From an uncultured Rhodospirillaceae bacterium (GTDB lineage Bacteria > Pseudomonadota > Alphaproteobacteria > Rhodospirillales > UBA2165): 64,000 nucleotides of DNA. Position 1 is the first letter of the stretch. Every line of letters starts with the position of its first letter. The stretch is from NCBI GenBank assembly GCA_964566055.1, contig CAZMHI010000004.1, positions 20,053-84,052 on the forward strand, read 5' to 3'. Position numbers and translations under genes: made by a program. The notes beneath the pieces were generated by a model that did no database searches, was not told the origin of the DNA, and saw only the letters and a program-made list of their open reading frames with translations. This document shows positions 8,365-53,658 of this stretch, piece by piece.

Positions 8365-8380
8365 GTAACCAACTGCTTGC

Positions 8381-11101: not shown

Positions 11102-11114
11102 TATCCCAGCTAAA

Positions 11115-11152: not shown

Positions 11153-11184
11153 CAAGATTTAAAGTAAATAGGAATTACGGCGTC

Positions 11185-12447: not shown

Positions 12448-12461
12448 TTGGAGGGCCTGTT

Positions 12462-13545: not shown

Positions 13546-14192
13546 CACACCCTCTTGTCGTCGCTGTTACCGGTGCCACCGGCGTGATTTACGGCGTTGA
13601 ATTGCTTAAAGTTCTGAAAGAACTTGGCGAGGAAACCCATCTGATTTTAAGTGAATCAGCCGGCCGCAATTTGAAAATCGAGACTGAATATAATCTCGAT
13701 GATGTGCGCGCTTTGGCTGATGTTGTCTACAGCAACAAGGACATTGGTGCCGCGGTCGCCAGTGGATCTTTCCTGACCCGGGGTATGGTGGTCGTGCCCT
13801 GCACAATCAAAAGCCTTTCGGCGATTGCCAATTCCTACAATGACAATCTCGTTGCCCGGGCAGCCGATGTGACTTTGAAGGAGAAGCGCCGCTTGGTGCT
13901 GATGGTAAGGGAAACACCCTTGCACAAAGGCCATCTCGATTTGATGTCCCGTAGCGCTGATTTGGGGGCGACGATCCTGCCGCCGATGCCGTCCTTTTAT
14001 CACGGACCGCAAACCATCCAGGACATTATTAACCAAAGTATCGGTAAGGTGCTGGATCAGTTCAGCATCGAGCATAGTCTTTTCCGCCGCTGGAAAGGCG
14101 ATGAGCGGGTGACCGATCGGGAAGTTAAAACGCCTAGCAAAGATAGAGTAGAAGAGCTGGAATCCCGCTTCGGTGAAATCAAGCGTATGTAG
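13542..14192 (+). CDS. ubiX: UbiX-family flavin prenyltransferase (prFMN synthase)
   Basis: 216 aa. VVAVTGATGVIYGVELLKVL...MVVVPCTIKSLSAIANSYNDNLVARAADVTLKEKRRLVLMVRETPL is a classic UbiX/Pad1 sequence. Confidence 0.9.
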   Translation: MTHPLVVAVTGATGVIYGVELLKVLKELGEETHLILSESAGRNLKIETEYNLDDVRALADVVYSNKDIGAAVASGSFLTRGMVVVPCTIKSLSAIANSYNDNLVARAADVTLKEKRRLVLMVRETPLHKGHLDLMSRSADLGATILPPMPSFYHGPQTIQDIINQSIGKVLDQFSIEHSLFRRWKGDERVTDREVKTPSKDRVEELESRFGEIKRM

Positions 14193-14198: not shown

Positions 14199-16526
14199 CT
14201 ACTCCTGTTGCTCCAGCACGTCCAAGACTTTTTCAGGTGTCATTGGTAGAGAATTTGGCCGCCCGCCAATAGCATCATCAATGGCATTGGCAATTGCTGG
14301 CGCGACGCCAACCATCGCCGGTTCACCGACACCCTTGGCGCCGAAAGGTCCAGCTGGTTCCGGGTCTTCAACAATTATCGTCTGAACTTTGGGCACTTCT
14401 TTGACGCCCGGCACTTTGTATTCCATCAGCGTTGGATTGACCAAACGGCCATTGTCCCAGACCATTTCTTCAAACAGCGCATAGCCCATGCCTTGGGCGA
14501 AACCACCTTGGATTTGGCCTTCAATATTTGTCGGATTAATCGCCTTACCGACATCAGCGGCAGCCCAGGCTTTGACCACTTCAACCTGGCCGGTGACTTC
14601 GTCAACATCAACGGCGGCACCCTGAACGCCGTAAATATAGGCGCCCATATTACCGAAGACGACGGCTTTCATCTTGGAGCCTTCACGATCGAAGGGCGGT
14701 CCATCAAAAACAAACGTATGGGTGCCGATGATCGGTCCGCCAACCCCATAATGCGCACGCAACGAGGCCTCTTTAAAAGTGATGGTGCGGTTGACCAAAG
14801 GACTGTCTGTAACGTCAGCTTTTACGCCGACCTGGCCGCCTGAAATTAACGTCAGCTGAGCCGGGTCACAGTCGAGCATAGCAGCTGCGTGTTCCATGAT
14901 CTGATCGGCAACGTCTTCGGCTGCCGCCTTAACTGCCCGGCCCGTGGTGTAGGTGGTGCGGCTGCCGACAGATTTGTAATTGTAGGGTGTCGTGTCGGTA
15001 TCAGGCTCGGTTACATTTATGGCTTCGATCGGCAGCTTAAGAGCTTCGGCGCAAATTTGCGCCAAGATGGTACTCGCGCCCTGGCCGATCTCAATACCGC
15101 CGGTATTCATGGTAATGGTGCCGTCTTCACGCAGTTGCACTGAAGCACCGCTGGCCAAAAAACTGCTGATATGGGCAAAACCTGAAAAACCAAAGCCGCG
15201 TTTTTTACCGGCTACAGGTGGCGGCAATTGATCTTTATCTAGTTCCGCCGCCTTTTGTACTTCTTCGAGGCATTGGGCAAAGCCGCAGGCCGGCACTTCC
15301 TGGCCGCCCAGCCATTTATCGCCGGCCACCATGGCGTTCTTTTGGCGCACTTCCATTGGTGACAGCTCAAGCGCTTGGGCGAGGCGGTCAATCAGGCATT
15401 CACGGGCGATGGTGGTTTGCGGATTGCCGAAGCCCCGGAACGAGCCGGCTCGTAGTTTATTGGTGTAAAATGCCCGGGCTGAGCCGCGGAAATTTGGGAT
15501 CCGGTAGGGCCCCCGCGCCATCATCAGGCCGAAACTTGCAACCGCCGGGGTTTCGTCCATGAAAGAGCCGCCATCGAACAATAGTTCGGCTTCCTGAGCG
15601 ATAAAAGTGCCGTCTTTCTTAGCGCCCATTTTCATGCGCACGCGTGACGGGTGACGCGACCGGCAGGTTTCAAAATCCAAGGTGCGAGAGAGAGTAATTT
15701 TAACCGGTTTGCTGGCTTTAAGCGCCAGGGCAGCGGCAATCGGCTGCATATGAGGCCCAGCCCGGCCACCAAAGCCACCACCAACAGCTGGAGAAATTGC
15801 CCGCACTTTGGTAAGCGGCAGGCCGAGATAATCAGCTGTCCGGGTTTGAATGAAATGAACACCCTGGTTCGGCCCCCAAACCGTTACTTTACCATTAGCG
15901 TCGACATCGGCGAGAGCAGAGGCTGGCTCTAAATAGAGATGATGCTGAGCCTGGGTCTCAAATGTTTCTTCGACCACGGCATCGCACTCAGCCCAGGCAG
16001 CATCAACATCACCTTCCTCTGCCGAGGTTGCCCAGCATTCATTGCCGCTAACCTCGAGGTCCGTTACTTTCATTTGGTAGGTAGAGAAATCCGGGTGGAT
16101 GATCGGCAGATCAGGATTCATCGCATCATCAATCGAGAGAATTGGCGTCAGCTCTTCATACTCGACTTGGATCAAGCGGGTGGCTTCTTCAGCGGCTTCT
16201 CGCGAGCGAGCGGCAACGGCGGCAACCGGCTCACCGATATAGCGGACCCTGCCTTTGGCCAGCAAGGTTTCGTCTTTGACGTGGCCACCGCTGCGAAACC
16301 AATCATAGTCATCACCGGTGATGACGGCTTTGACGCCGGGCACCTTAAGGGCTGCAGAAATATCGTAAGATACTATGGTGGCATGGGCGTGCGGGCTTGT
16401 AGCAATGGCCCCAAAGAGCATGCCGGGCAAGGTCATGTCATCGGTATAGCGGGCGCGACCGATTGCTTTATCTTTACCTTCGAGCCGGGTAACGCGTTGG
16501 CCAATCGTGTCTAAGACTTCGGTCAT
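14199..16526 (-). CDS. Xanthine-dehydrogenase-family molybdopterin-binding large subunit (set 1)
   Basis: 775 aa. It has an Ald_Xan_dh N-terminal domain (GRARYTDDMTLPGMLFGAIATSPHAHA) and the GGGFGGR Mo-cofactor motif. It overlaps the 2Fe-2S subunit gene by 4 nt. Confidence 0.9.
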   Translation of the reverse strand: MTEVLDTIGQRVTRLEGKDKAIGRARYTDDMTLPGMLFGAIATSPHAHATIVSYDISAALKVPGVKAVITGDDYDWFRSGGHVKDETLLAKGRVRYIGEPVAAVAARSREAAEEATRLIQVEYEELTPILSIDDAMNPDLPIIHPDFSTYQMKVTDLEVSGNECWATSAEEGDVDAAWAECDAVVEETFETQAQHHLYLEPASALADVDANGKVTVWGPNQGVHFIQTRTADYLGLPLTKVRAISPAVGGGFGGRAGPHMQPIAAALALKASKPVKITLSRTLDFETCRSRHPSRVRMKMGAKKDGTFIAQEAELLFDGGSFMDETPAVASFGLMMARGPYRIPNFRGSARAFYTNKLRAGSFRGFGNPQTTIARECLIDRLAQALELSPMEVRQKNAMVAGDKWLGGQEVPACGFAQCLEEVQKAAELDKDQLPPPVAGKKRGFGFSGFAHISSFLASGASVQLREDGTITMNTGGIEIGQGASTILAQICAEALKLPIEAINVTEPDTDTTPYNYKSVGSRTTYTTGRAVKAAAEDVADQIMEHAAAMLDCDPAQLTLISGGQVGVKADVTDSPLVNRTITFKEASLRAHYGVGGPIIGTHTFVFDGPPFDREGSKMKAVVFGNMGAYIYGVQGAAVDVDEVTGQVEVVKAWAAADVGKAINPTNIEGQIQGGFAQGMGYALFEEMVWDNGRLVNPTLMEYKVPGVKEVPKVQTIIVEDPEPAGPFGAKGVGEPAMVGVAPAIANAIDDAIGGRPNSLPMTPEKVLDVLEQQE

Positions 16527-17008
16527 TGCGCTGCTCCCTTGAGTTGACCGGCAGCTTGAACGGCCGAGGCGATAATTTTTTCATAGCCGGTACAGCGGCA
16601 GATGTTGCCTGAAATACCTTCACGAATCTCGGCTTTGCCCGCCTCGGGATTGCTTTTAAGGATGGAACTGACGGTCAGGATCATACCGGACGAACAAAAA
16701 CCGCATTGAATGCCGCCGGTATCAACGAAGGATTGTTGCACAACGTCCAAACCTTCGGGTGTGGCCAGTCCCTCGATGGTGGTTATCTCAGCACCTTCGC
16801 AGAGGGCAGCGATAGTTAAACAGCCCCGTACCGGTTCACCATTGATCAAAACCGTGCAGGTGCCGCAGACGCCCTGATCGCAGCCCCGTTTGGCACCGGT
16901 TAAATTAAGTCTTTCGCGCAGCACAGTCAGTAGAGTTTCCTGAGCCGGCGCCGTGACGGTTTCAATCTCGCCATTAATATTGAGATCGTAAGTTAAAGTA
17001 TCACTCAT
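16523..17008 (-). CDS. (2Fe-2S)-binding small subunit of the Mo hydroxylase (set 1)
   Basis: 161 aa with both cluster motifs: CDQGVCGTCTV...C and QCGFCSSGM...CRCTGY. Confidence 0.9.
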   Translation of the reverse strand: MSDTLTYDLNINGEIETVTAPAQETLLTVLRERLNLTGAKRGCDQGVCGTCTVLINGEPVRGCLTIAALCEGAEITTIEGLATPEGLDVVQQSFVDTGGIQCGFCSSGMILTVSSILKSNPEAGKAEIREGISGNICRCTGYEKIIASAVQAAGQLKGAAQ

Positions 17009-24611: not shown

Positions 24612-26936
24612 ATGGGAATGAAACCATCTCCCTTTGGGACCCAAATACCTTATGAGGAAAAAGAACTTAAAGTCGTCGGCACCAACCCGGAAGCTCGGCC
24701 GGATGCTGTCGACAAAGTAACTGGCAAGGCGCGCTACGCCGCCGATATCAACGTGCCAGGGCAATTAATTGGTAAGGTACTGAGAAGCCCGCACGCGCAT
24801 GCTGTCATCAAGTCCATCGATACTTCGGAAGCTGAAAAGCTAAAAGGCGTCAAGGCGGTAATATGCCGTGATGATTTACCGGATATGCCGGTCATGCACG
24901 CGGCAGCCGGTGAGATTATGGTTAATTTCCGTGATGTCACCCGTGCCATAATGGCGCGTGAGAAAGCTTTGTTTGATGGTCATCCCGTGGCTGCTGTGGC
25001 TGCCACCAGTGAATCTGTCGCCAAGGCGGCCCTCAAGCTGATTAAAGTAGAGTATGAAGTGCTGCCCCATGTTATTGATGTGGTTGATGCCATGAAACCG
25101 GATGCGCCACTTCTTAATGAAGAACAATTTACCAAAGGTGTTGAACCGGCGCCCGATAAGCCCTCCAACATCGCTGCACGAATGACCAGCGTACTGGGTG
25201 ACGTTGAAGAAGGATTTGGACAGGCTGATCTGGTCGTCGAACGCGAATTTAATACCAAGGCCGCTCATCAAGGCTATATCGAGCCCCATGCCAGTCTGGC
25301 CATTTATACCGAGGGCGGAAACGCCGAGGTTTGGACCAGTACTCAGGGTCATTTCCTGATCCGCGCCCAGACCGCTAAGATTCTGGAAATGGATGTCTCC
25401 CGCGTTAAGGTAACACCGGCGGAACTCGGTGGCGGTTTCGGCGGTAAAAACATGATTTATCTGGAGCCGCTGGCCATCGTTTTGTCTAAGAAATCGGGAC
25501 GACCGGTGAAAATGGTGATGACGCGGGACGAGGTGTTCCGCGCTTCGGGTCCGACCTCAGGCACAAACATTATCATTAAGATCGGTGTCACCAAGGACGG
25601 CAGGATAACGGCCGCTCAGGCGATTTTAAATTATCAATCGGGTTGTTTCCCGGGTTCTTCGCTGCCGCTCTGCACGCCGACCGCCTTCACCCGCTATGAT
25701 ATCGCCAACGTCCTGGTGATCGGCAATGACGTTGTCTGTAACCGGCCGAAAGTTACAGCCTACCGGGCGCCAGGAGCCCCGATGATCGCCTTTGGCGTTG
25801 AAACGGTGATGGATGAAATTGCTGAAGAGCTGGATATTGATCGTCTCGAAATCCGGCTTATGAATGCCGCCAAAGAAGGCACCCAGACCCATTTCGGGCC
25901 AAAACTGGGACCGATCGGCTTTATTGAAACGCTGGAAGCGGCAAAAGCTCATGACCATCTGAAGGAGAAGCTCGGACCCAATCAGGGCCGCGGTATTGCC
26001 ACCGGTTTCTGGAACACGCTGGGTATGGAAACGTCAGCAACTCTCAACGTCAACCAGGACGGCACAGCCTCCCTGATTTATGGTACGGTTGATGTGGCGG
26101 GCGGTATGCGCGCTGCCTATTCACAGATTGTTGCTGAAGAATTAGGTATTCCGTTTGAGAAAGTGCGGGCGATCCAGAGCGATACCACGTCTTTGGGTTT
26201 CAACTTTACGACAGCCGGCAGCCGGGGCACGGCGGCGGGCGGAATGGCGGCGGTTAAAGCCAGCCGCGATGCCATCACCCGCATGTGCGAGGTGGCTGCC
26301 CGTATCTGGGAAGTGGAGCCGGACCAAGTCGTTTGGGAAAACGGTCATGCCCGCCCGGCCAGTTCCAATGTCGGCGAGTTTGAGCCCTTGTCGCTGGCCG
26401 AGATCGCCATGAAAGCAGGCTTTTTTGGCGGCACCATTGCAGGCCATGCGGAAATTAATGTGACCGGCGGTGGGCCCGGCTTCGGCACTCATCTGGTAGA
26501 CGTCGAAGTTGACCGGGAAACCGGTGCGGTTAAAGTGCTGCGCTATACTATTGTCCAGGATGCCGGCAAGGCCGTGTTCCCGGATTATGTCAAAGCTCAG
26601 TTCCACGGTGCTGCGGTTCAAGGTATCGGCTTGGCTCTGAACGAGGAATATATCTATGACGAAAACGGCGTGATGGCCAATCCGGGATTCTTGGATTACC
26701 GGGTGCCGGTTGCCTCAGACATTCCGCCTATTGAAACCGTGATCGTTGAAGTACCGAATCCGAACCATCCTTACGGCATTAGAGGTGTTGGTGAAGTGCC
26801 GATCATTCCGCCACTTGGGGCGATTTCTAACGCGATTTATGACGCCGTTGGTATTCGGATGCGGGATCATCCGATGTCGCCACCAAAAGTCCTGGCCGCT
26901 CTAGATGAAGCCGAACCGGCGGCAGCGGCGGAGTAA
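24612..26936 (+). CDS. Xanthine-dehydrogenase-family molybdopterin-binding large subunit (set 2)
   Basis: 774 aa. GKARYAADINVPGQLIGKVLRSPHAHA and the GGGFGGK motif. It is tightly spaced with the S and M subunit genes. Confidence 0.9.
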   Translation: MGMKPSPFGTQIPYEEKELKVVGTNPEARPDAVDKVTGKARYAADINVPGQLIGKVLRSPHAHAVIKSIDTSEAEKLKGVKAVICRDDLPDMPVMHAAAGEIMVNFRDVTRAIMAREKALFDGHPVAAVAATSESVAKAALKLIKVEYEVLPHVIDVVDAMKPDAPLLNEEQFTKGVEPAPDKPSNIAARMTSVLGDVEEGFGQADLVVEREFNTKAAHQGYIEPHASLAIYTEGGNAEVWTSTQGHFLIRAQTAKILEMDVSRVKVTPAELGGGFGGKNMIYLEPLAIVLSKKSGRPVKMVMTRDEVFRASGPTSGTNIIIKIGVTKDGRITAAQAILNYQSGCFPGSSLPLCTPTAFTRYDIANVLVIGNDVVCNRPKVTAYRAPGAPMIAFGVETVMDEIAEELDIDRLEIRLMNAAKEGTQTHFGPKLGPIGFIETLEAAKAHDHLKEKLGPNQGRGIATGFWNTLGMETSATLNVNQDGTASLIYGTVDVAGGMRAAYSQIVAEELGIPFEKVRAIQSDTTSLGFNFTTAGSRGTAAGGMAAVKASRDAITRMCEVAARIWEVEPDQVVWENGHARPASSNVGEFEPLSLAEIAMKAGFFGGTIAGHAEINVTGGGPGFGTHLVDVEVDRETGAVKVLRYTIVQDAGKAVFPDYVKAQFHGAAVQGIGLALNEEYIYDENGVMANPGFLDYRVPVASDIPPIETVIVEVPNPNHPYGIRGVGEVPIIPPLGAISNAIYDAVGIRMRDHPMSPPKVLAALDEAEPAAAAE

Positions 26937-29382: not shown

Positions 29383-31998
29383 ATGGATGATGTCCCTCAA
29401 AATTTAACTGATTCAGCCGACACGACTGACAAAGTAGATGACAAATGGATCTCCTCATCCTGCAGTCTTTGCTATTCGTCCTGTTCGATCAAAGCTCACC
29501 GGGTAAACGGTACGGTCGTTAAAATCGAAGGCAACCCGGAAAGTGAAGTTGGCAAGGGCCGGCTTTGCGGCAAAGGGGTCAGCGGCATTATGTCCCATTA
29601 TGATCCCAACCGTCTCAACAAACCGATGAAGCGCACCAACCCTGAAAAAGGCAAAGGCATCGACCCAATGTGGGAAGAGATTTCCTGGGATGAGGCGCTC
29701 GATACCGTGGCTGAAAAACTAAAAGCACTGCGTGAAGATGACCCGCGTAAATTATTTATCATGCGGACGACCACGGTAATGACCCAGCACATTCCGCCCT
29801 TTGCCTTTATGTCAGCCTTTGGCACCCCGAATGCCTCGGCGGCCGGTGGCGGACTGCATTGCGGTAATGGCGCTCATTTAATCAGCGGCATCATGCATTC
29901 GTCCTGGTCGATTGTGCCGGATTTTCAATATTGCAATTACGCGGTTTATTTCGGCGCTTCGAAAGGCCACGCCGCCGGTCACGCGTCTTGCTCCAATATG
30001 ACGATGGCGGCGGATGCCAGGGCGCGCGGTATGAAAATGGTGGTGGTTGATCCCTTCGCCAATCAGGCAGGAGCTAATTCCACCGAATGGGTGCCGATCC
30101 GGGTTGGCACCGATGCCGGCTTGGCGCTCTCAATGGCCAATGTTCTGGTCAATGAGCTGGAAATGTATGACGTCGCTTATCTCAAAGCCAAAACCAATAT
30201 GCCGTATTTGATTGGTGATGATACCCGCTACATTCGCGATCCCGAAACCAATAAGCCCATGGTCTGGGACAGCGAAACCGGTCAGGCGTGCACCTTTGAT
30301 GCGACAGATTCAGCTGACATGGCGCTTGAGGGCACCTATATGGTCGACGGCAAGCAATGCCGCCCGGGCTTCGTGCTGATGAAGGAGCATCTGAAAACCT
30401 ATACGGTTGAGCGTGGTGAGGAAATCACCACCATACCGGCTGAAAACATCCGCCGGATCGCTACTGAGTTTGCTGAAGAAGCGCGCATCGGCAGCACCAT
30501 CGTCATTGATGGCGTGACGGTGCCGTACCGCCCGGTGGCGGCGATCGCTTTCCGCGGCTCGCAAGGCCACAAGAACTCAACCTACAATATGCTGTCGGTT
30601 GATCTGCTGAACCATTTGGTCGGCGCTGCCGATGTTGCTGGTGGTTGTCTCGGCTTTAACCCGGCCTGCGATGGTTATCCTGAAACCGGACGCTTGAAAT
30701 ATATTCCTCATCCTGATCCGGATGGCTTGATGATTACCGGCTCCTGGATGGGCCCGCACGGACCGTATCCGATCAATGATCCAGCCCCACCGGAAAGGGT
30801 TGGTTTACAGAATTTATTCCCAATGGCGATGGGCTCAGTATTCCAGGCTTCCACCGATCAGGAGGAAATGTGGGAAAAATTTGATTTCGATTACCGCCCT
30901 GAGTTTTTGCTCAATCTCGGCGCCAATCAGATCATGAGTGTCGGCAATAGTGAAGCCACCGAAGCCTCCTTGAAAAAATTCAAGTTCATTGTTTCTTTTG
31001 ATATTTTCGCCACTGAAACCACCGAATTTGCTGATATCGTATTCCCCGATTGCGGCTATCTTGAAACCACCGATTCCCGCTCGAATTTTCCGTTTATATT
31101 CAGTTTGCCTGCTGGTTTGGGTGATTGGTGCTGGCCGATCCGCCAGGAAGTTGTTGAGCCCGAAGGCGAGCGACGACTATTTGCTGATGTCCTGCAAGAA
31201 CTGGCAGACCGGATTGGCATTACGCCCGATTTAAACGCCGCATACAACGCCTGGTTCGAGCTTGAAGGCGAGAACCGGCTGAAACCAGACCGCAAATATA
31301 CCTTTGCCGAGATCGGCGATCACGATTTGAAGGATAAGTTCGGTCCCGATAAAGGCCTCGAATACTTTAAGGAACATGGTTTGGTCAAATGGCCGAAAAA
31401 ACCCAATGAGGTGTATTGGCGCGCCTTTACCGATGTCAGGGTGCCGCTCTATTGGGAGTGGATGACTGATACCTGGGAGAAAACAGTGGCAATCGCCGGG
31501 CCTAAAGGCTTGGATATTCCGCAAGAATATTACAGCCCTTTGCCGGATTGGCTGCCCTGTCCGTCCCATGAATGTAACCATGAAGATTTTGATTTCTATG
31601 CTTTCTATTACCGTGACATTGTTCACACCAATAGTCTGACGATGGAAAACGCCTGGCTGGACGAGGCTGCTCAGCTCGATCCTTATTCTTATAACATTGC
31701 GATCAATGCCGGAGTGGGTCGCGAAAAAGGATTGCAGTCAGGCGACCTTATCTCGGTGGAGAACGAGCACGGCCACAAGGTCGAGGGCCGCGCACGGCTG
31801 ACCGAAACCATCCACCCCGAAGGCTTAGGCATTGGCGCCTGTGCCGGTCATTGGGCGCGCCGTATGCCGACCGCCAAAGGCAAGGGCGTTTTCTTCAATG
31901 ATCTGGTTGAGCTCGATTGGGAACATTCAAGCCCGAACAATCTAACCGTTGATCTTTGCGCCAAAGTAAAGGTCACCAAATTGGAGGCAGCACAATGA
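29383..31998 (+). CDS. Mo/W-bis(pyranopterin guanine dinucleotide) oxidoreductase catalytic subunit (DMSO-reductase superfamily), with no Tat signal
   Basis: 871 aa. N-terminal FS0 motif C-x2-C-x3-C...C (CSLCYSSC...GRLCGKG). The first 26 aa (MDDVPQNLTDSADTTDKVDDKWISSS) have no RR motif and no hydrophobic segment. Confidence 0.85.
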   Translation: MDDVPQNLTDSADTTDKVDDKWISSSCSLCYSSCSIKAHRVNGTVVKIEGNPESEVGKGRLCGKGVSGIMSHYDPNRLNKPMKRTNPEKGKGIDPMWEEISWDEALDTVAEKLKALREDDPRKLFIMRTTTVMTQHIPPFAFMSAFGTPNASAAGGGLHCGNGAHLISGIMHSSWSIVPDFQYCNYAVYFGASKGHAAGHASCSNMTMAADARARGMKMVVVDPFANQAGANSTEWVPIRVGTDAGLALSMANVLVNELEMYDVAYLKAKTNMPYLIGDDTRYIRDPETNKPMVWDSETGQACTFDATDSADMALEGTYMVDGKQCRPGFVLMKEHLKTYTVERGEEITTIPAENIRRIATEFAEEARIGSTIVIDGVTVPYRPVAAIAFRGSQGHKNSTYNMLSVDLLNHLVGAADVAGGCLGFNPACDGYPETGRLKYIPHPDPDGLMITGSWMGPHGPYPINDPAPPERVGLQNLFPMAMGSVFQASTDQEEMWEKFDFDYRPEFLLNLGANQIMSVGNSEATEASLKKFKFIVSFDIFATETTEFADIVFPDCGYLETTDSRSNFPFIFSLPAGLGDWCWPIRQEVVEPEGERRLFADVLQELADRIGITPDLNAAYNAWFELEGENRLKPDRKYTFAEIGDHDLKDKFGPDKGLEYFKEHGLVKWPKKPNEVYWRAFTDVRVPLYWEWMTDTWEKTVAIAGPKGLDIPQEYYSPLPDWLPCPSHECNHEDFDFYAFYYRDIVHTNSLTMENAWLDEAAQLDPYSYNIAINAGVGREKGLQSGDLISVENEHGHKVEGRARLTETIHPEGLGIGACAGHWARRMPTAKGKGVFFNDLVELDWEHSSPNNLTVDLCAKVKVTKLEAAQ

Positions 31999-32603
31999 GA
32001 TGGGGTATGGTGATCGACTTGAAGCGCTGCATCGGCTGCTATGGCTGTCAGCTTTCCTGCAAGGCTGAAAATGGCACGCCCCCCGGCGTCTTTTTCGCCC
32101 GCGTCCACAAACAGGAAGAAGGCCAGTATCCGACGGCGCAGACGACCTTCCTGCCTGTTTTGTGTAATCACTGTGATGATCCGCCTTGTGTCGATGTCTG
32201 CCCAACCGGCGCCAGTTTCGTTTGGGAAGATGACGGTATTGTCGATATCGATGCTGATAAATGCGTTGGCTGCCGGTCCTGCATGATGGCCTGCCCGTAT
32301 TCGCAGCGCTTCCTCAATGATGAGCCCCAGAATTATTACGGCGATCAGGGAGCGACCCCTTACGAAGAAGCGCGCGTTCAGCAGCATCAAGAGGGCGTGG
32401 TTATGAAATGTAACTTCTGCCGCGACCGGGTGCGTAACGGTCAGAATCCTGCCTGCGTTGAAAACTGTCCGACTATTGCCCGCTATTTTGGTGATCTCGA
32501 TGATCCGAAGAGCGAAGTGTCGCGTTTGATCCGAGAGCGTAGCGGCTTCCCGCTGCACCCGGAAAAAGGCACCAATCCAAACGTTTACTATTTGCCGGCT
32601 TGA
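31995..32603 (+). CDS. 4Fe-4S ferredoxin-type electron-transfer subunit (DmsB/PsrB-like)
   Basis: I prefer ATG 31995, an ATGA overlap with the alpha-subunit stop. MRWGMVIDLKRCIGCYGCQLSCK...CNHCDDPPCVDVCP...CVGCRSCMMACP...CNFCRDR...PACVENCP shows four Cys clusters. Confidence 0.85.
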   Translation: MRWGMVIDLKRCIGCYGCQLSCKAENGTPPGVFFARVHKQEEGQYPTAQTTFLPVLCNHCDDPPCVDVCPTGASFVWEDDGIVDIDADKCVGCRSCMMACPYSQRFLNDEPQNYYGDQGATPYEEARVQQHQEGVVMKCNFCRDRVRNGQNPACVENCPTIARYFGDLDDPKSEVSRLIRERSGFPLHPEKGTNPNVYYLPA

Positions 32604-32619
32604 TTGGGGAGGGGAAATA

Positions 32620-33573
32620 ATGTCAGCCACGAATTCAGGACGCTATCAACAGCTCATCAAGGATTATCAAACCGAATACCGGCCTCAACGGGAATGGTCA
32701 GAGGGCCGCGGCTTTTATCTCATCCTTGGCCACTTTCTGGTCGGCGTTGCCGCCGGCGCCTGGCTGTTTGGTCTGTTCTTCGACGATTTGATTTCCCTGC
32801 TGGCCGGTTTTGTCCTGGCCGGTCTCGGCGGTTTGGCGCATTTGGTTAATTTGGCGCGGCCGGAGCGGTTTATCTTGATGATGCTGAGAACGGCAACGTC
32901 CTGGGTGTCGCGTGGATTTTGGGGGCTGACGTTGTTTTTGATCGGCAGCGTGATCTATCTGCCATCCCTAATATTTACTGACACTTTCTGGCACAGTGAT
33001 TCGCCTTTCGCCAATCTAGGCATTGCGCTTTCGATTGCCGGCTCCATCGTCATGATGGCCTATATGGGATTTGTCTATACGGCGTCGAAGGCTATCGCCT
33101 TTTGGAACTCAACCCTGCATCCTGTGCTCTATATCGCTTATGCCTTGCGCGGAGGGGCAGCAGCCTATCTGTTGTCACTCGCCTTTCAGGGCGAAGCTGT
33201 CAGTGGCGGCTCCGATATCCTGATATTCTGGGTTGCTGTCACGGCGACCGTCATTGTGCTCTGGATATTTGAAATCCAAGGTGCGCTCACCAGCGGTGAA
33301 GAAGCAGCGGTACGCTCGGTTCACGATATCCTGGCGGGCCGTCTGGCGCTCTATTTCTATGTTGGCATTCTACTGGTTGGTCTGGTTGTGCCGGTGTTCC
33401 TGATGGCTGGCATTATCGCGCCTCTCTCACCAACTCTCTTTGCCATTATCGGATTATCGTCGGTTGCTGGTGATTTCTTTATGAAATTCTCCTCGATCAA
33501 AGCAGGCGTTTTCAGTCCGGTCCGGCTCTATAGCGGCAATAACAGAAGAGCAACACGTCGCCGAAAAATCTAA
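32620..33573 (+). CDS. NrfD/DmsC/PsrC-like integral membrane (quinone-interacting) subunit
   Basis: 317 aa. Multiple long hydrophobic segments are visible throughout. Its position follows the Mo and FeS subunit genes. Confidence 0.65.
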   Translation: MSATNSGRYQQLIKDYQTEYRPQREWSEGRGFYLILGHFLVGVAAGAWLFGLFFDDLISLLAGFVLAGLGGLAHLVNLARPERFILMMLRTATSWVSRGFWGLTLFLIGSVIYLPSLIFTDTFWHSDSPFANLGIALSIAGSIVMMAYMGFVYTASKAIAFWNSTLHPVLYIAYALRGGAAAYLLSLAFQGEAVSGGSDILIFWVAVTATVIVLWIFEIQGALTSGEEAAVRSVHDILAGRLALYFYVGILLVGLVVPVFLMAGIIAPLSPTLFAIIGLSSVAGDFFMKFSSIKAGVFSPVRLYSGNNRRATRRRKI

Positions 33574-37791: not shown

Positions 37792-38526
37792 TTACGCCTC
37801 GCTATCCAGCTCCGGATAATGGCGGAACACACCCATGGTGTTGAACGGAATGCGCCGCTCGGAGGCTAAATAGGCCGCCGTATTTGGCCGTTCCGCCACC
37901 GCCTCATGAAGCGCGATCATCTGCGGATAATTGCCTTCAACTTTAGCAAAGGCCTTGGGGAATGCATAGCGGAGCCCTTCCACAATCTGGAATAACGACA
38001 AATCGGGATAGGTGAGGGCGTCACCAATCAGCCAGCCTGATTTGGCTGGATTGTTGGCAAGTATGCTTTCGTAATAGCCCATATGTTTGGGAATACGATG
38101 CTCGATGAAATTGGCGGCGCGTTTTTTAGATTCTTCGACCTGATCCTCGTAATAAAGCGCGCTGGCAATCGGATGATGGGTGTCGTGCACCTCCATCAAT
38201 AAATCCGTCACCGTGAGCTGAAGCTGATGGGCGAACACTTGATCCGCTTCGCTCTTAGGCGCGAGGCCGATCTTGGGCGCAAGGTAGTTCAGAATATTGG
38301 CGGCCTGTGCGATGGTCACATCACCATCGATCAGGAAAGGCGGTGCGAAGGGTGGGCGGGTCTGACTGGCATCTTGCAGGATTTCCAATATTGCTGCCCG
38401 GTTGTCTTCTTGTTCGCTTGGCAAGCGGGCGACATCAACGTAGTCGGCGCCGGCTTCTTCAAGGGCCAGGCGCACAACTTCACCCCGTCCCTGGATCATC
38501 GGCCAGTAATAGAATTGGTACGCCAT
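37792..38526 (-). CDS. Glutathione S-transferase family protein (Tyr-type N-terminus resembling alpha/mu/pi/sigma classes)
   Basis: 244 aa. The N-terminus YQFYYWPMIQGRGEVVRLALEEAG resembles the Y(F/W)xxRGRxExxR pattern. Its ATG directly abuts the upstream stop (TAGATG). Confidence 0.65.
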   Translation of the reverse strand: MAYQFYYWPMIQGRGEVVRLALEEAGADYVDVARLPSEQEDNRAAILEILQDASQTRPPFAPPFLIDGDVTIAQAANILNYLAPKIGLAPKSEADQVFAHQLQLTVTDLLMEVHDTHHPIASALYYEDQVEESKKRAANFIEHRIPKHMGYYESILANNPAKSGWLIGDALTYPDLSLFQIVEGLRYAFPKAFAKVEGNYPQMIALHEAVAERPNTAAYLASERRIPFNTMGVFRHYPELDSEA

Positions 38527-39135
38527 CTAACTATGCGACCAGTTGTCGGGATCATCGGAATCGTTAGGCGACAATCCTAAAATGTCTCCCTCGGTTGAGC
38601 AGCCGAGACCCACGACCGTGCGGTTGGCATAAGCGAAATAGGAGACCAACTGGTTGATTTCCAGAATCTCACCATCATCATAGCCGGCATCCCGCATGTC
38701 TTTCACCAACTGCTCCGGCATGTCAGTGACGTCGACGGTGAGAGCTCTCGCATAACGTAGTGCCGCCGCTTCCTGATCTGAGAACACGCCTTCAAATTGA
38801 TCGGTCTCCAAGGCTGCTCGAATGGCAGTCGAAAGTTCTTCATTATCCAGCAAACGCGTTAGACCCGCGAAATGATGCTCGACACAATAATGACAATTGT
38901 TGAGATGACTGACATAAACGCCGAGAGTTTCCAGAAACCACTTGGGCACCTGATTGGCCGAATGATGGATGACATACTTATAAATGGTCATATGCGCCTC
39001 CATCGTGTGCGGACGGAGGCTGTGCATCATCATGATATTATCGACGTTATTATCGGGGCCTTTCACTTTGTCATAAAGCGATTTCAGGCGGCCTTCAGCA
39101 TCGTCGTAGTCGACGACATCAATCCATGGGGTCAT
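38527..39135 (-). CDS. AhpD-like / carboxymuconolactone decarboxylase-family protein (uncharacterised peroxidase-related enzyme type), Cys form
   Basis: 202 aa with the CxxC redox motif in the context LGVYVSHLNNCHYCVEHH. It lies 11 nt downstream of the peroxiredoxin gene. Confidence 0.75.
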   Translation of the reverse strand: MTPWIDVVDYDDAEGRLKSLYDKVKGPDNNVDNIMMMHSLRPHTMEAHMTIYKYVIHHSANQVPKWFLETLGVYVSHLNNCHYCVEHHFAGLTRLLDNEELSTAIRAALETDQFEGVFSDQEAAALRYARALTVDVTDMPEQLVKDMRDAGYDDGEILEINQLVSYFAYANRTVVGLGCSTEGDILGLSPNDSDDPDNWSHS

Positions 39136-39146: not shown

Positions 39147-39590
39147 TTAAAGTGAGGCTAAATCAGCCAGTACCTGATCCGGATGCTCCGCCGGTGTCAC
39201 TGTCTCATACGCTTTGGCCACCGACCCATCCGGTGCAACCAGTACCGATATCCGGCTGGCATTGCCGGTATCCGAGGTGACGACGCCATAAGCTGTCGAG
39301 GCCGCTCGATCCCCATCTGTTAACAGATCATACGGAAAGTCGAACTTGTCTTTGAACGCTTTGTTATCGGCGTTGCTGTCGAAACTCACCCCGAGAATGA
39401 CACAATTTTTATCATTAAAGTCTTGGATTCGATCACGGAACCCATTGCCTTCGATGGTTCAACCTGGTGTATCGGCTTTGGGATACCACCAGAGCAAAAC
39501 ATATTTGCCCGAAAAGTCATCAAGCGACACAGCCGCGCCGTCTTGATTGGTAAAGGAAAAGGCCGGAGCCTGCTCACCTGCTGCTATCAT
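39147..39590 (-). CDS. Bcp-type peroxiredoxin with an in-frame UGA (predicted selenocysteine) at the peroxidatic position
   Basis: ORF-track pieces 39459..39653 and 39147..39389 are in the same frame. Read through TGA (39459-39461) the protein is MIAAGEQAPAFSF...YVLLWWYPKADTPG-U-TIEGNGFRDRIQDFNDKNCVILGVSFDS..., 147 aa. The UGA aligns with the Cys of the PGCT Prx motif. RBS AGGTGG lies upstream of ATG 39590. Confidence 0.7.
39425..39443 (-). other. Candidate bacterial SECIS hairpin for the peroxiredoxin UGA
   Basis: The mRNA reads GGGUUC-CGUGAUC-GAAUCC (6 bp including one G-U pair, 7-nt loop containing GU). It begins 16 nt after the UGA codon. An alternative stem GAACCAU/AUG(G)GUUC overlaps the UGA. 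Confidence 0.35.
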
Positions 39591-39797
39591 GGTTTTGTTC
39601 CACCTTTCTATTTTTGAAATAAGCCAAAAAAGTGCCCTGAGTAAATGTCTCATCCAACCAGCTTAGCGCGCTGCCATGCGTTGTAAAGACCGCTCTGAGA
39701 TTCAAGTTGACTCTGAATCGGCCTACGCTAAAGTATGTTTAGATACTAAATCAATGTTTTATATATGAAACGTTCTGGTACCTAAAGGTATTCATAA

Positions 39798-49656: not shown

Positions 49657-50163
49657 TTATTTCGGCATGTTTTGTTTTAGGGGCAGAATATGCCATTCAA
49701 CTTCGGGTTCGATCCCGGCATCATCCAGTAAGGCGCCAATCGGGCAACGATCAATTGAAAGCTGTTTAAGACGTTCGACCTTGGTATCAGGCTCGTCGGT
49801 TTCGATGCTGATGATCATTTTTGCTCCAACAAAACGCAAAATCTTACTATCAGCTTCACGTCCTTCGCCCATACCAGAATCAATGATCGCATCAATTTTA
49901 ATTTCACCATACTTAAGCCGCATCGCTTCAGCGACCTTGACGACTTGCACGGTTTGACAGGAGGCGAGGGCAGCGGAGAAATGGAGGAGGGGAGATGCCC
50001 CGTCATCCTTGCCGCCGCGTTCCGGCGGCTCATCAATGATGATGGCATGATTGTCCATTTGAATATCACATCTGACAGTGCCAGCTGCTGTAACGGAGCG
50101 CGCCGTCCTGGTGCGCGGTTCTGGTTTTTCTTTGAGTTTGATGGCGCTCATTCTGTTCCCCAA
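49657..50163 (-). CDS. OsmC/Ohr-family protein
   Basis: 168 aa. DEPPERGGKDDGASPLLHFSAALASCQ and the C-terminal ...SIDRCPIGALL are OsmC-like. Confidence 0.7.
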   Translation of the reverse strand: MGNRMSAIKLKEKPEPRTRTARSVTAAGTVRCDIQMDNHAIIIDEPPERGGKDDGASPLLHFSAALASCQTVQVVKVAEAMRLKYGEIKIDAIIDSGMGEGREADSKILRFVGAKMIISIETDEPDTKVERLKQLSIDRCPIGALLDDAGIEPEVEWHILPLKQNMPK

Positions 50164-50287: not shown

Positions 50288-51658
50288 ATGGCGAAGAACC
50301 AACTTGATCCCGATCTCAGGGGCTATCTGGAAACCAATAAGGATATTCTGACGGTTATTGAAAAGCCGGTGAGCATCAATGATATCGGTGCGCTGTCGGC
50401 GCAAAGCGACGGTCCAATCCTGTTTGAGAATATAAAGGAACATCCGGGCTTTAGATTGTGCGATATGCTGGTGCGTCACCGCTGGTCGCAATGCCGGGCA
50501 TTAGGTGTTGAAGAAAAGGACTATCTGCCGACATTAGCACAGCGCTTGCGCAAACCGCCGCGGGGTTTAGTTGATGTTGAGACCGGCCCGGTTAAAGAAG
50601 TGATCTGGACTGGCAAAGAGGCAGACTGGCTCAAATTGCCGATTCCCATTCATTCTGAGCAGGAAGACAAGCCCTATGTCACGGCGATGAATATCGTCAA
50701 AGACCCAGAGACCAGCTTTTATAATTCATCCCATGCCGGCACTCAGGCGGTCGGCCCTCAAAAAGGGTTGGTGAGTTTTATCACGCCCCATACCCACGCC
50801 ATTATCCAAAAATATTTGGCCCGGGGTGAAAAAGAAATGCCGATTGCGGTGGTGTTTGGCATCCCGCCCGCATTTGAAATTATGGGTAATTTTTCCGGCC
50901 TTCATATGGATTTGTGGGGTGAGATGGAAATGGTTGGCACGATCATGGATATGGATATTGAAATGGTGCCCTGTGAAACCATTCCGCTGACCGTGCCGGC
51001 TCATGCCGAAATTATCGTGGAGGCGGTGGTCGACCTAGAAAGCCAGACTGATATTGGTGTTGGTGTCTCACCTTCAATGTATTATCTGCCGAAGACTGCG
51101 ACTTTGCCGGATATGCATATTAAGGCGATTACCATGCGGGAAGACCGGCCGATCTATCGCAATCATCTTACGACGCCGGATACAGATCATCAGACCCTGC
51201 CGCGCTTGTGTCACGAAGCCGTGCTTTTTAACCGGCTCACAGAGATTGGTGTCAAAGTCCACGATGTACAGTTCCCAACCTGGGGAGCCGCACTTTCCTG
51301 TATAATCCAGCTTGAGGCGCCTCGGGAAGGCTTTATCAACGACGCGTTATTACAAGCGATGGGATCACCCTGGCTCAACACCAAAATGGTCGTTGCCGTC
51401 AGCCCGGACACCGATATTTCAAATGCGCAAGAAGTTTATCATGCCATAGCGACGCGCTGCGATCCGTCCCGGGACATAATTATTGCTGACAATACGAGGG
51501 GCTCACCGTTCGATCCATCGGGTGAGCCAATCGATGCATTTTGGCGGACGGTCGGCAAGATCGGTATTGATGCCACCGCCAAATCACGGAATTTAGCCGA
51601 TCATGAACGCGCCTGGCCTTTGAATTGGGGCAAGGTCAAACTCGAAGACTATTTATAA
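50288..51658 (+). CDS. UbiD-family (de)carboxylase, second copy
   Basis: 456 aa. It has a UbiD-like N-terminus (DLRGYLETNKDILTVIEKPVSINDIGAL) and UbiD-like overall length. RBS AGGGAGGG. Confidence 0.8.
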   Translation: MAKNQLDPDLRGYLETNKDILTVIEKPVSINDIGALSAQSDGPILFENIKEHPGFRLCDMLVRHRWSQCRALGVEEKDYLPTLAQRLRKPPRGLVDVETGPVKEVIWTGKEADWLKLPIPIHSEQEDKPYVTAMNIVKDPETSFYNSSHAGTQAVGPQKGLVSFITPHTHAIIQKYLARGEKEMPIAVVFGIPPAFEIMGNFSGLHMDLWGEMEMVGTIMDMDIEMVPCETIPLTVPAHAEIIVEAVVDLESQTDIGVGVSPSMYYLPKTATLPDMHIKAITMREDRPIYRNHLTTPDTDHQTLPRLCHEAVLFNRLTEIGVKVHDVQFPTWGAALSCIIQLEAPREGFINDALLQAMGSPWLNTKMVVAVSPDTDISNAQEVYHAIATRCDPSRDIIIADNTRGSPFDPSGEPIDAFWRTVGKIGIDATAKSRNLADHERAWPLNWGKVKLEDYL

Positions 51659-51670
51659 GGAGGAAGTCAT

Positions 51671-52291
51671 ATGGATGCACCAAACCCTAAAATTACCAAA
51701 GAAGAAGAACCGTTTATTCCTTATGTTGAGGAAGAAAACTATCCGGAAAGCCTGCAGCCTCTGCTTGGGCCCTATATTGAGCGGATGGGATTCTTACCCA
51801 ACGCCTTGAAACTATATATGCACCGGCCGGAAATCGCCGGCACGCTTTTTGCGCTCAACAGTAACATTATGCGCGATCCATCTTCGACCCTGGATCAGCA
51901 GCTCAAACGTAAATTGGGCACGGTTGCGAGTAAGATCAACGGGTGCACCTATTGAACAAGCCATGGCTGCGGCGTGCTGCAGAACGATGGTGAAGACGGT
52001 GCCGAAGGCTGGGATTTTGACAACGAAGAACTTTCCGAGTTGTTGACCGATCCGCAGCCCAAGGACGATTTCGAAAAGGCTTGTTTTGACTATGTTGAAG
52101 CGGCTTCTTTCGACCCGGCCAATGTGCCGGACGAGGTGTTGGAAAATCTCAAAAAGCACCTCACGCCCCCGCAAGTGGTTGAACTCGCTTGTGTTGTTGG
52201 CTTCTGGAAGATGTACAATACTATCCACGACAGTTTGAAGATTCCGCTTGAGAAGCATCTTCATGCGGTTTCGGGTTTTGTTGATCTTTAG
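51671..52291 (+). CDS. AhpD-like / carboxymuconolactone decarboxylase-family protein with an in-frame UGA (predicted selenocysteine) in a C-x-x-U motif
   Basis: ORF-track pieces 51671..51955 and 51974..52291 share a frame. Read through TGA (51953-51955) the protein is ...LGTVASKINGCTY-U-TSHGCGVLQ..., 206 aa. This aligns with the LGVYVSHLNNCHYCVEHH motif of the Cys paralogue at 38527-39135. RBS AAGGAGGAA. Confidence 0.7.
51961..51990 (+). other. Candidate SECIS hairpin for the AhpD-like UGA
   Basis: Lower stem CCAU/AUGG (51961-64 / 51987-90). Upper stem CUGCGG/CUGCAG (CUGC:GCAG plus G-U and G-C pairs). Apical loop CGUG. It starts 6 nt after the UGA codon. Confidence 0.35.
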
Positions 52292-52299: not shown

Positions 52300-52806
52300 A
52301 TGAAACTTAAATCTACCAACCGAGATGAATTGCTGGAAGCGGGTTCAGATGTCCGCTTCCGGCAGCTTGTCTATGATTTGTTTACGATCTCGACGCATAT
52401 GCAAAGCGTGCGCGATCATGTCGCCGAGCGCATCGGCGTTACCGGTCCGCAATACAGTATCCTGTTGGCGATCGCAGAAATGGGAAATGATGTCGGGGTC
52501 AGCGTAAAGCGCGTTGCCGAGCATCTGCATGTTAGCGGCGCCTTTGTCACCGCCGAGACCGGTAAATTGATAAAGACCGGATACTTGAATAAGCAGCAAG
52601 ACCAGGATGACCGGCGCGCTGTGCGCCTGACTTTATCAACAAAAGGTCTTACGGAGATTGAACGCGTGTTGCCCGAGCTTAGAGAGATAAATGACACTTT
52701 CTTTGGCAGCTTGAATAAACCTGAATTTGAAGATTTGTCTACTATCATTGCTGGCATGATCGGAGGCGCCGAGCGTGCAACCGAAAATACAAACTCTGAC
52801 GGGTGA
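52300..52806 (+). CDS. MarR-family transcriptional regulator
   Basis: 168 aa. wHTH region (GVTGPQYSILLAIAEMGNDVGVSVKRVAEHLHVSGAFVTAETGKLIKTGYL...DRRAVRLTLS). It starts 8 nt after the upstream stop. Confidence 0.8.
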   Translation: MKLKSTNRDELLEAGSDVRFRQLVYDLFTISTHMQSVRDHVAERIGVTGPQYSILLAIAEMGNDVGVSVKRVAEHLHVSGAFVTAETGKLIKTGYLNKQQDQDDRRAVRLTLSTKGLTEIERVLPELREINDTFFGSLNKPEFEDLSTIIAGMIGGAERATENTNSDG

Positions 52807-52872: not shown

Positions 52873-53658
52873 ATGCTAGCTCTCGTATCGCCGGCGAAAA
52901 AAATGGACTTTGCCGACCTTGGCCGGTCGCTGTCGTATACTGAACCCGACTTTCCGAGTGATACCAGGCATTTGGTGGCCCGGGCTCGGAAACTAAAAAA
53001 ATCCGATATTCAACAGTTGATGAATCTTAGCGACGACTTGACGGATTTAAATTATCAAAGGTTCAAAGCATTTTCACGGCATCCCTCGCCAGATAACGCT
53101 AAGCAAGCTGTGATGGCTTTTGCGGGTGATACCTATCTTGGTCTCGATTCGGCAACCCTTGCCGATAAGGATTTGGATTATGCCCAGGATCATCTACGCA
53201 TTTTGTCAGGTCTGTACGGATTGTTGCGCCCTCTTGATCTGATCCAGCCTTACCGACTTGAAATGGGCCGGCGGCTAACCAACAAGCGGGGTGAAAATCT
53301 TTATGATTTTTGGGGCGACAAGCTCGCCAAGGGCATCAATAAAATTGTCAAAGATCATCAGGATTCAACAGTGATTAATTTGGCTTCCAATGAATATTTT
53401 AAAGCAGCCAACCAAAAAGCCATTAAATCACGCATTATTAGGCCGGTGTTTAAGGAGATCAAAGGCGATCGTGCGATGGTTATTGGTTTCCTGGCTAAAA
53501 AGGCGCGTGGTACGATGGCCCGCTTTATTATTCAAAACCAGGTAGAAAAATCTGAGGACTTGAAAGCCTTCGCAGAAGACCGTTTTAAATTCCAAGCCGA
53601 TCAATCAGATGATAAAAAATGGGTGTTCAGCCGTAAATTTATCCCGGTCGGCAGCTAG
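52873..53658 (+). CDS. yaaA: Peroxide stress protein YaaA (UPF0246)
   Basis: 261 aa. MLALVSPAKKMDF..., LRILSGLYGLLRPLDLIQPYRLEMG and INLASNEYFK are close to the E. coli YaaA blocks. Confidence 0.85.
   Translation: MLALVSPAKKMDFADLGRSLSYTEPDFPSDTRHLVARARKLKKSDIQQLMNLSDDLTDLNYQRFKAFSRHPSPDNAKQAVMAFAGDTYLGLDSATLADKDLDYAQDHLRILSGLYGLLRPLDLIQPYRLEMGRRLTNKRGENLYDFWGDKLAKGINKIVKDHQDSTVINLASNEYFKAANQKAIKSRIIRPVFKEIKGDRAMVIGFLAKKARGTMARFIIQNQVEKSEDLKAFAEDRFKFQADQSDDKKWVFSRKFIPVGS

Follow-up and report, generated by a model that had tools for sequence, protein, structure and literature searches.

A marine Rhodospirillaceae gene interrupted by an in-frame TGA most probably encodes an AhpD/CMD-fold selenoprotein beside a UbiD-family decarboxylase gene

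The DNA considered here is a stretch of 64,000 nucleotides (the window) from contig CAZMHI010000004.1 of assembly GCA_964566055.1, which belongs to an uncultured Rhodospirillaceae bacterium. Two consecutive open reading frames (ORFs) on its plus strand, 51671..51955 and 51974..52291, most probably constitute a single gene for a selenoprotein of the AhpD/CMD fold, in which the TGA at 51953–51955 is read as selenocysteine (Sec); we put the probability of this reading at about 0.92. An earlier interpretation made from the letters alone (the sequence-only reading) had claimed that the two ORFs share one frame and are split by a single TGA, and this is what the sequence and its joined translation give, with the TGA as the sole interruption. 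The joined product reads ...KRKLGTVASKINGCTY up to the TGA and TSHGCGVLQ... after it; the residues immediately before the TGA are ...SKINGCTY, and the peptide spanning residue 95 would be INGCTY-U-TSHGCGVLQNDGEDGAEGWDFDNEELSELLTDPQPK. The gene, its signals and its neighbours are listed in Table 1.

The residue encoded by the TGA occupies a position that is otherwise held by an invariant cysteine. With the joined protein as query, the best 120 of 1036 matches in a large protein collection are 60–77% identical to it, are 195–225 residues long and cover 94–100% of the query, on both sides of the TGA. The residue aligned to the TGA (residue 95) is Cys in 120/120 of these homologues, and the claim of the sequence-only reading that the UGA stands for the second redox Cys of a CxxC motif is thereby borne out. 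The alignment of the joined protein to the Cys forms extends to the C-terminus. The 120 homologues share the signature NGC-x-Y-C-T-x-H-x-C, which in the numbering of the joined protein comprises Lys79 and Arg80, then N90-G-C92-x-Y94-C95-T-x-H98-x-C100; further invariant residues are E112-G-W114, E135, C138, E171, C174, F178-W179, N183 and H186. The closest Cys forms (72–77% identity) are syntenic orthologues in other genomes: the UbiD-like / AhpD-like / MarR gene order of the TGA-bearing locus recurs around P0002 and P0003 (Alphaproteobacteria) and around P0100 (Burkholderiales).

The identical TGA, with the same division into 94 and 105 amino acids (aa), occurs in at least six assemblies (JGI, ENA and Logan) from different samples. 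TGA-bearing orthologues were sought in two collections by means of a degenerate DNA pattern with the TGA inside the motif, a pattern that would miss Sec forms having another local motif; the scan returned three Rhodospirillaceae metagenome-assembled genomes (MAGs) and four marine metagenome contigs, all of one clade. Four further Sec variants (L011; L012/L014/L015; L013/L016; L017) differ from the window at 74–109 of the 621 nucleotides, and every one of them retains the TGA and an open frame on either side of it. Among the five TGA-bearing variants, synonymous differences (pS) amount to 0.29–0.78 per site, and the ratio of nonsynonymous to synonymous divergence (dN/dS, Nei–Gojobori) is 0.03–0.07 upstream and 0.03–0.10 downstream of the TGA. 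The low ratio downstream argues that this half has been translated in frame throughout the divergence of the lineages. Within this orthologous group Sec is found only in the one marine Rhodospirillaceae clade, a distribution that suggests a lineage-specific switch from Cys to Sec.

The retention of the TGA and of both halves under purifying selection in diverged variants effectively excludes two simpler explanations. A sequencing or assembly error is a general possibility in metagenome assemblies and nothing more; the same TGA in JGI, ENA and Logan assemblies of different samples, and again in the three MAGs and four metagenome contigs of diverged sequence, reduces its probability to a negligible one. 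A pseudogene, in which a nonsense mutation turned TGC or TGT into TGA and left the downstream part untranslated, needs one base change and fits the way gene callers break the locus into 94 and 105 aa. We regard it as very unlikely nevertheless, since five lineages whose synonymous divergence is nearly saturated (pS up to 0.78) keep the TGA and both halves, dN/dS is as low downstream as upstream, and a structured element that only the TGA forms possess follows the codon. As a separate matter, the downstream half contains a run of N in one ENA assembly of the locus (L007, about 1000..1060), where masking or scaffolding accounts for the 105-aa ORF being uncalled.

A third explanation would be a true split gene, with a 94-residue protein and a separate 105-residue protein started at GTG 51974, the two perhaps reassociating. 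Both ORFs do exist as called, and GTG is a permitted start. No ribosome-binding site comparable to the AGGAGG that stands 7 nucleotides (nt) upstream of ATG 51671 precedes GTG 51974, however, and this GTG lies inside the loop of the hairpin described below, which argues against an independent start of the downstream ORF. In addition, separate translation would leave codons 96–101 (T-S-H-G-C-G) untranslated although they include His98 and Cys100, both invariant in 120/120 homologues; the second active-site residue would be lost as well, and no homologue examined is naturally split at this point without a TGA. The chance that the locus is such a pair of genes is accordingly very small.

The UGA is followed by a hairpin of the selenocysteine insertion sequence (SECIS) type. 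The sequence-only reading had described a two-tier hairpin (CCAU/AUGG and CUGCGG/CUGCAG, with a CGUG loop), and this structure holds, beginning at the sixth nucleotide after the UGA. When the U of the UGA is numbered +1, the lower tier pairs GCCAU (+8..+12) with AUGGU (+35..+39), the upper stem pairs CUGCGG (+15..+20) with CUGCAG (+25..+30), and G14 and C33 form an additional pair. The apical loop consists of C21, G22, U23 and G24, at a UGA-to-loop spacing of 17 nt, and the predicted fold of 45 nt has an energy of −14.2 kcal/mol. The bacterial SECIS (bSECIS) model asks for a loop of 3–9 nt with a G in the first two loop positions and an upper stem of 4–16 bp, together with a UGA-to-loop distance of 16–37 nt and a minimum free energy (MFE) of −7.5 kcal/mol or lower (PMC13188914 Fig. 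2). The hairpin fits every one of these constraints, with a 4-nt loop carrying G second, an upper stem of 6–7 bp, the 17-nt spacing and the −14.2 kcal/mol.

The hairpin is also constrained at the nucleotide level. Third codon positions vary at 131/207 sites (63%) among the five Sec variants, whereas there is no variable site at all from +15 to +38. Variation at third positions affects just 2 of 11 sites within +8..+40 and 129 of 196 in the remainder of the gene (Fisher p = 0.0024); of the two changes inside, one is C9 to U, in which pairing is retained as G-U, and the other lies just beyond the stem. The three closest Cys orthologues, P0001 (77% identical), P0002 and P0003, are without the hairpin, and the corresponding 45-nt segments fold into other shapes (−12.7, −6.9 and −3.9 kcal/mol). 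The SECIS of Escherichia coli fdhF is likewise a hairpin in the coding region, with an upper stem about 11 nt after the UGA and a 4-nt loop containing G-U at about +22 to +24; the hairpin in the window differs from it in having no bulged U in the upper stem and in having an internal loop between the two tiers. We note that P0002 (L020 6283..6327) carries CUGCGG CAUG UUGCUG where the Sec forms carry CUGCGG CGUG CUGCAG. By reading, 5 of the 6 upper-stem pairs are possible there, though they are unused in the predicted fold, and this stem-like stretch may represent a SECIS in the making or what is left of one.

The contig of the source lineage carries at least four putative selenoprotein genes, each split or shortened at the TGA by gene callers. 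The first, besides the AhpD-like gene, encodes SelD (selenide, water dikinase), whose joined reading, MDGDHLRLTQLSHGGG-U-GCKVAPS..., reaches 500.8 bits with NF002098, the equivalog model for SelD (cut-off 299). A hairpin of 6 bp with loop GUC follows at 61103–61117 (loop start +21, fold −13.9 kcal/mol). Gene callers begin SelD at GTG 61113, whereby 24 N-terminal residues are lost, the active-site Sec among them. The second is a BCP/PrxQ-like peroxiredoxin (...WWYPKADTPG-U-TIEGNGF...), in which Sec takes the place of the peroxidatic Cys; it is called as fragments of 64 aa and 80 aa, each with an AhpC-TSA match, while the joined protein matches BCP PRK09437 over residues 2–145 with 105 bits, a match that spans the TGA, and a hairpin with loop CGUGAUC is located at +25. 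The third lies outside the window, about 6–8 kb to the left of its start, and encodes a UGSC-domain protein (...AILGVGL-U-STCSPT...), with a hairpin of 8 bp (loop GGUC at +21) downstream of its UGA. This gene stands after a thioredoxin-reductase-like (Pyr_redox_2) gene.

These genes bear on a further explanation, namely that a residue such as Trp, Cys or Gly is inserted at the UGA instead of Sec, by near-cognate suppression or in a reassigned code. A full-length protein would still be made in this way, and selA, selB and selC were not seen. TGA is an ordinary stop elsewhere, however, closing 5 of the 39 long ORFs in the window, and the genetic code of the source is the standard one. A mechanical scan of the window for read-through ORFs gave 94 candidates, among which only the TGAs at 39459, 51953 and 61089 combine redox or SelD motifs with homologue support; these are the only three TGAs in the 64 kb that fall at a conserved Cys of such a motif, and all three belong to known selenoprotein families. 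A Sec-containing SelD would be pointless without Sec insertion, and the SECIS-type hairpin is under selection. Read-through by a residue other than Sec thus has a very low probability.

Several results weigh against reading the TGA as Sec, or lessen the support that the hairpin gives to it. Compared with shuffled sequences the folding energy is only mildly low (z = −0.22 for 76 nt, −1.88 for 45 nt). Loose stem and loop rules fit 61% of the 2558 TGA trinucleotides in the window; for this reason they were not relied on, and the comparative evidence was counted as stronger. A strict descriptor (at least 6 contiguous pairs and a 3–5-nt loop that includes GU and opens at +19..+25) matches 13 of the 2558 TGAs (0.5%), those of the AhpD-like and SelD genes included, though it was set after the hairpin had been seen and is illustrative only. 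The stems are identical in the five Sec variants, which leaves no compensatory covariation to count, and part of the nucleotide conservation in the hairpin could stem from the conserved peptide CGVLQ. A scan of the whole window at the Rfam gathering thresholds returned no match, including at the AhpD-like, SelD and peroxiredoxin hairpins. Finally, selA, selB and tRNA-Sec were not found in the approximately 84 kb covered of the 102-kb source contig: Pfam annotation showed neither selA nor selB there, and ARAGORN found no tRNA, hence no tRNA-Sec, in the window and ten fetched loci. The sequence-only reading had named an absence of Sec-decoding machinery from the genome as evidence against a selenoprotein; on this point the contig does encode SelD, whose own synthesis depends on Sec decoding, while selA, selB and selC were not seen. 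A SelD with such a requirement implies a working Sec-insertion system, and we infer Sec decoding from the four Sec-type genes.

If the gene is decoded in this manner, SelB carrying Sec-tRNA(Sec) would bind the apical part of the hairpin (the 6-bp stem and the CGUG loop with G22 and U23) and insert Sec at the UGA. Sec95 would then act as the attacking nucleophile and pair with Cys92, or possibly Cys100, in a selenenylsulfide that a thiol donor would re-reduce, making the protein a thiol/selenol oxidoreductase. In AhpD of Mycobacterium tuberculosis the second Cys of the CxxC motif is the more reactive one, which would fit the placement of Sec at that position.

Table 1. Features of the AhpD-like locus and of other Sec-related genes (window coordinates unless another contig is named)
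Feature	Position	Strand	Details
OsmC/Ohr-like gene	49657..50163	-	Pfam OsmC 3.4e-12; divergent, upstream of the UbiD-like gene
UbiD-family (prFMN-type) decarboxylase gene	50288..51658	+	Pfam UbiD, UbiD_C, UbiD_N; ends 12 nt before the AhpD-like start
Shine-Dalgarno AGGAGG	51658..51663	+	7 nt upstream of ATG 51671; read from the sequence
AhpD/CMD-fold gene, probable selenoprotein	51671..52291	+	206 codons; ATG 51671; Sec-UGA codon 95; TAG 52289-52291
In-frame TGA, probable Sec95 of C92-T-Y-U95	51953..51955	+	Cys in 120/120 homologues; at least 6 assemblies; four diverged variants
SECIS-type hairpin	51960..51991	+	lower stem 51960-64/51987-91; upper stem 51967-72/51977-82; loop CGUG 51973-76
MarR-family regulator gene	52300..52806	+	Pfam MarR_2 6.7e-11; starts 8 nt after the AhpD-like stop
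YaaA peroxide-stress protein gene	52873..53658	+	Pfam H2O2_YaaD 1.6e-82; downstream
SelD (selenide, water dikinase) gene	61041..62087	+	in-frame TGA 61089-61091; GGG-U-GCK
Peroxiredoxin (BCP/PrxQ-like) gene	39147..39653	-	in-frame TGA 39459-39461; TPG-U-T; likely start Met 39588-39590
Cys AhpD-like paralogue	38527..39135	-	202 aa; NNCHYCVEHH
GST-like gene	37792..38526	-	directly after the Cys AhpD-like paralogue, no gap
UGSC-domain protein gene	L026 15683..17317 (JGI contig Ga0115653_1000221)	+	TGA 15971-15973; about 6-8 kb left of the window start

The joined protein is a secure member of the AhpD/CMD fold, and its predicted structure is all-helical. The family profile matches the solved AhpD-fold proteins 2pfx, 6k40 (Deinococcus radiodurans AhpD), 6ohi (Bmp8), 2oyo and 3c1l with E values from 6e-16 to 5e-12, and the range extends to 2e-10 for the set that includes 2prr. 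The AlphaFold model has a predicted local distance difference test score (pLDDT) of 94.5 and a predicted template modelling (TM) score (pTM) of 0.90, and Foldseek aligns it at a probability of 1.00 and TM scores of 0.70–0.83 with 6ohi, 2prr, 2pfx, 3c1l and 6k40, Bmp8 coming first. In the predicted model Sec95 is located directly before the helix 97–104. JGI names for the homologues are 'uncharacterized peroxidase-related enzyme' and 'alkylhydroperoxidase family enzyme'. Scores against existing family models are low: NF041238 (AhpD_rel_CFYUT) gives 31.9 bits against a cut-off of 175, and NF053654 (GroundWater_YciW) 28 bits against 310. Despite the similar motif C-[FT]-Y-U-T, membership in NF041238, a family of 357 residues, was rejected. 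This 206-residue, UbiD-linked orthologous group falls below the cut-offs of existing models, and public assemblies present the gene as two hypothetical ORFs.

The residues C92-T-Y-U95 form the redox centre, and the invariant His98 and Cys100 come shortly after them. In the canonical AhpD proton relay, M. tuberculosis uses Glu118, Cys130, His132, Cys133 and His137, and Pseudomonas aeruginosa PA0269 uses Glu36, Cys48, Tyr50, Cys51 and His55 (PMC3141380). The relay is kept in part, in that Cys92, Tyr94 and Sec95 correspond to members of it; Tyr94, at the second x of the motif, resembles the relay Tyr of PA0269 (PMC3141380). With M. tuberculosis AhpD, a CxxC adaptor that reduces AhpC, the protein shares the all-helical fold and a redox pair at the start of a helix. 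It differs in having Arg at −12, His at +3, Sec as the second residue of the pair and no adjacent ahpC, and as a structural match to the model M. tuberculosis AhpD (1gu9) is very weak (E = 2.2).

Bmp8, a tetrabromopyrrole debrominase (6ohi/6ohj), is the best Foldseek match (TM 0.76–0.83). Its motif GCMYCKSH resembles the G-C-x-Y-[C/U]-x-S-H of the Sec protein, and both proteins have His at +3 and no Glu at −12. On the other hand, identity is only about 18%, and Bmp8 uses Cys, belongs to a natural-product cluster and is without the Cys100/Cys138/Cys174 set.

The biochemical role of the Sec protein is putative, and a conventional AhpD peroxidase assignment has the following to contend with. The Pfam CMD model scores 16.7 bits, under its threshold of 23, and the best NCBIfam match, TIGR01926 'peroxidase-related enzyme', reaches 56.9 bits over residues 14–193, below 81.8. 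The Glu(−12) and His(+4) of the canonical relay are absent: position −12 is the invariant Arg80, His98 is at +3, and position +4 is Gly in the Sec protein and variable in the family, with an invariant Cys (Cys100) at +5. No AhpC-type peroxiredoxin gene is adjacent, the neighbours being the UbiD-like, MarR, YaaA and OsmC genes. We nevertheless favour a thiol/selenol oxidoreductase that would detoxify peroxides or electrophiles. Its substrate would probably be a peroxide or another oxidised or electrophilic species tied to the decarboxylase or to peroxide stress, a suggestion that draws on the conserved UbiD / AhpD-like / MarR module, on YaaA downstream and on OsmC upstream.

The UbiD-family gene is probably the first gene of the operon, and its closest solved relative is HmfF (6h6x, furandicarboxylate decarboxylase; 135.8 bits over the full length). 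The UbiD / AhpD-like / MarR core is kept in two alphaproteobacterial genomes and one Burkholderiales genome with Cys orthologues, and YaaA is kept near the module in the Cys-form loci L020/L021 and L022. The OsmC/Ohr-like gene is not conserved at its position in Cys-form loci, and a distant Binataceae homologue has no UbiD neighbour.

This arrangement invites an alternative that concerns function only: a genuine selenoprotein that is not a peroxidase and performs thiol or selenol chemistry tied to the UbiD-family enzyme, for instance by dehalogenating a (hetero)aromatic compound reductively as Bmp8 does, or by keeping the decarboxylase in its proper redox state. Such a role would agree with Bmp8 (6ohi) as the top Foldseek match (TM 0.76/0.83), with His at +3 and the invariant Arg80 in place of Glu at −12, as in the Glu-less Bmp8, with the retention of the module across Alpha- and Betaproteobacteria, and with a UbiD neighbour closest to the heteroaromatic-acid decarboxylase HmfF; for Bmp8, debromination has been proposed to proceed through oxidation of the enzyme's own cysteines to a disulfide (PMC5577590). 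Profile scores, in contrast, are slightly higher to uncharacterised 'peroxidase-related' proteins and D. radiodurans AhpD (61.7 and 57.5 bits) than to Bmp8 (53 bits), the identity to Bmp8 is low, the YaaA and OsmC neighbours suggest peroxide stress, the Binataceae homologue stands apart from any UbiD gene, and no halogenase or halogen-related gene was seen near the Sec gene. We consider a UbiD-tied, non-peroxidase function unlikely. A more specific proposal, which would make the whole family the dedicated redox partner of an HmfF-like heteroaromatic-acid decarboxylase of the UbiD family, for example in Bmp8-like reductive dehalogenation or another substrate-level reduction, with the Rhodospirillaceae clade having exchanged the attacking Cys for Sec, the residue on which iodothyronine deiodinases rely to remove halogen, is speculative and distinctly improbable; if true, the protein would be the first selenium-dependent member of a UbiD-linked pathway. 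The favoured reading stays with a peroxide- or electrophile-detoxifying enzyme, and the UbiD / AhpD-like / MarR module offers a lead, open to test, on what this AhpD-like subgroup does.

The window encodes a second AhpD-like protein, which the sequence-only reading had presented as a Cys-form paralogue whose CxxC motif aligns with the CxxU motif and which would allow a comparison of Sec and Cys forms side by side. It reads ...LETLGVYVSHLNNCHYCVEHH, and its CxxC does align with C92/U95. The gene lies on the minus strand, though, the plus-strand translation of the same interval being full of stops, and the protein is only 19% identical to the Sec protein (BLASTP E = 5e-07). The two are alike in superfamily (AhpD/CMD), in length and in the aligned CxxC/CxxU. 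The paralogue scores 83.8 bits against TIGR01926, over the cut-off of 81.8, and retains the canonical Glu(−12) and His(+4). On these grounds it is a distant superfamily relative in another operon and not the Cys form of the Sec protein, and with 19% identity, a different relay and a different operon the proposed side-by-side comparison is weak. The proper Cys counterparts are the syntenic orthologues of other genomes, at 72–77% identity. We note that the Sec-peroxiredoxin gene, after a gap of 11 nt, is followed by the Cys AhpD-like paralogue and then by the GST-like gene, an operon-like order that resembles the pairing of AhpC with AhpD.

AhpD-like selenoproteins are already known and are common in marine bacteria, and the gene is a good example of them and no new kind. 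The sequence-only reading was correct in recalling them from marine surveys (PMC1088965, PMC2398784): 27 AhpD-like CxxU sequences from the Sargasso Sea were reported as new (PMC1088965), and in the Global Ocean Sampling (GOS) data 'AhpD-like 1' (COG2128, CxxU) ranks fourth in abundance among the selenoprotein families, at 299 sequences with Sec and 902 homologues with Cys (PMC2398784). An 'AhpD-like protein, TIGR01926, CxxU' also has an entry in a 2026 review (PMC13188914), and SelD, Prx (TxxU) and UGSC-containing proteins stand in the same selenoprotein lists (PMC1088965, PMC2398784, PMC13188914). The present protein agrees with the marine AhpD-like family in superfamily and fold, in a CxxU motif with Sec in second place, in its origin in marine bacteria and in having many Cys homologues and a SECIS directly after the UGA. 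It differs in the additional invariant residues Arg80, His98, Cys100, Cys138 and Cys174 and in its UbiD/MarR context, and forms a distinct group of 206 residues, a comparison in which the Sargasso and GOS members are represented by their descriptions only.

These findings add a well-supported and currently mis-annotated selenoprotein gene to an abundant marine family and leave the current understanding of Sec decoding unchanged. The Cys orthologues without the hairpin and the Sec forms make a natural pair in which to follow the co-evolution of a Cys codon turning into UGA with a SECIS, and the same pair suits a comparison of Sec and Cys catalysis.

Other genes of the window include a cluster at about 4206..14192 that resembles those for anaerobic carboxylation of phenol or phenolic acids; its members are a sigma-54 XylR-type regulator, PEP-utilizer and PPDK_N proteins (phenylphosphate-synthase-like), a UPF0261 protein, a CBS protein and an LpdD-like chaperone, together with a second UbiD-family enzyme (9602..11101) and a UbiX-type flavoprotein (13542..14192). 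Three sets of molybdenum hydroxylases of the xanthine dehydrogenase family (Ald_Xan_dh_C/MoCoBD) are present at 14199..17847 on the minus strand, at 23264..26936 on the plus strand and at about 45.7–48.0 kb (L001 5409..7703, minus strand); two of these sets include Fer2 and FAD_binding_5 subunits, and the contig that bears them encodes SelD as well. The genes of a PsrABC-like complex at 29383..33573 (plus strand) showed no in-frame TGA; the complex combines a molybdopterin oxidoreductase (871 aa, Molybdop_Fe4S4) with a 4Fe-4S protein and a membrane subunit of the NrfD type. After selD (62119..63677 and beyond; L007 11037..14681) come genes for an SCP2 protein, two peptidase-U32 proteins and a radical-SAM/SPASM protein, a layout that resembles the UbiT/UbiU/UbiV system of O2-independent ubiquinone synthesis, and cobalamin synthesis genes lie further on (L008).

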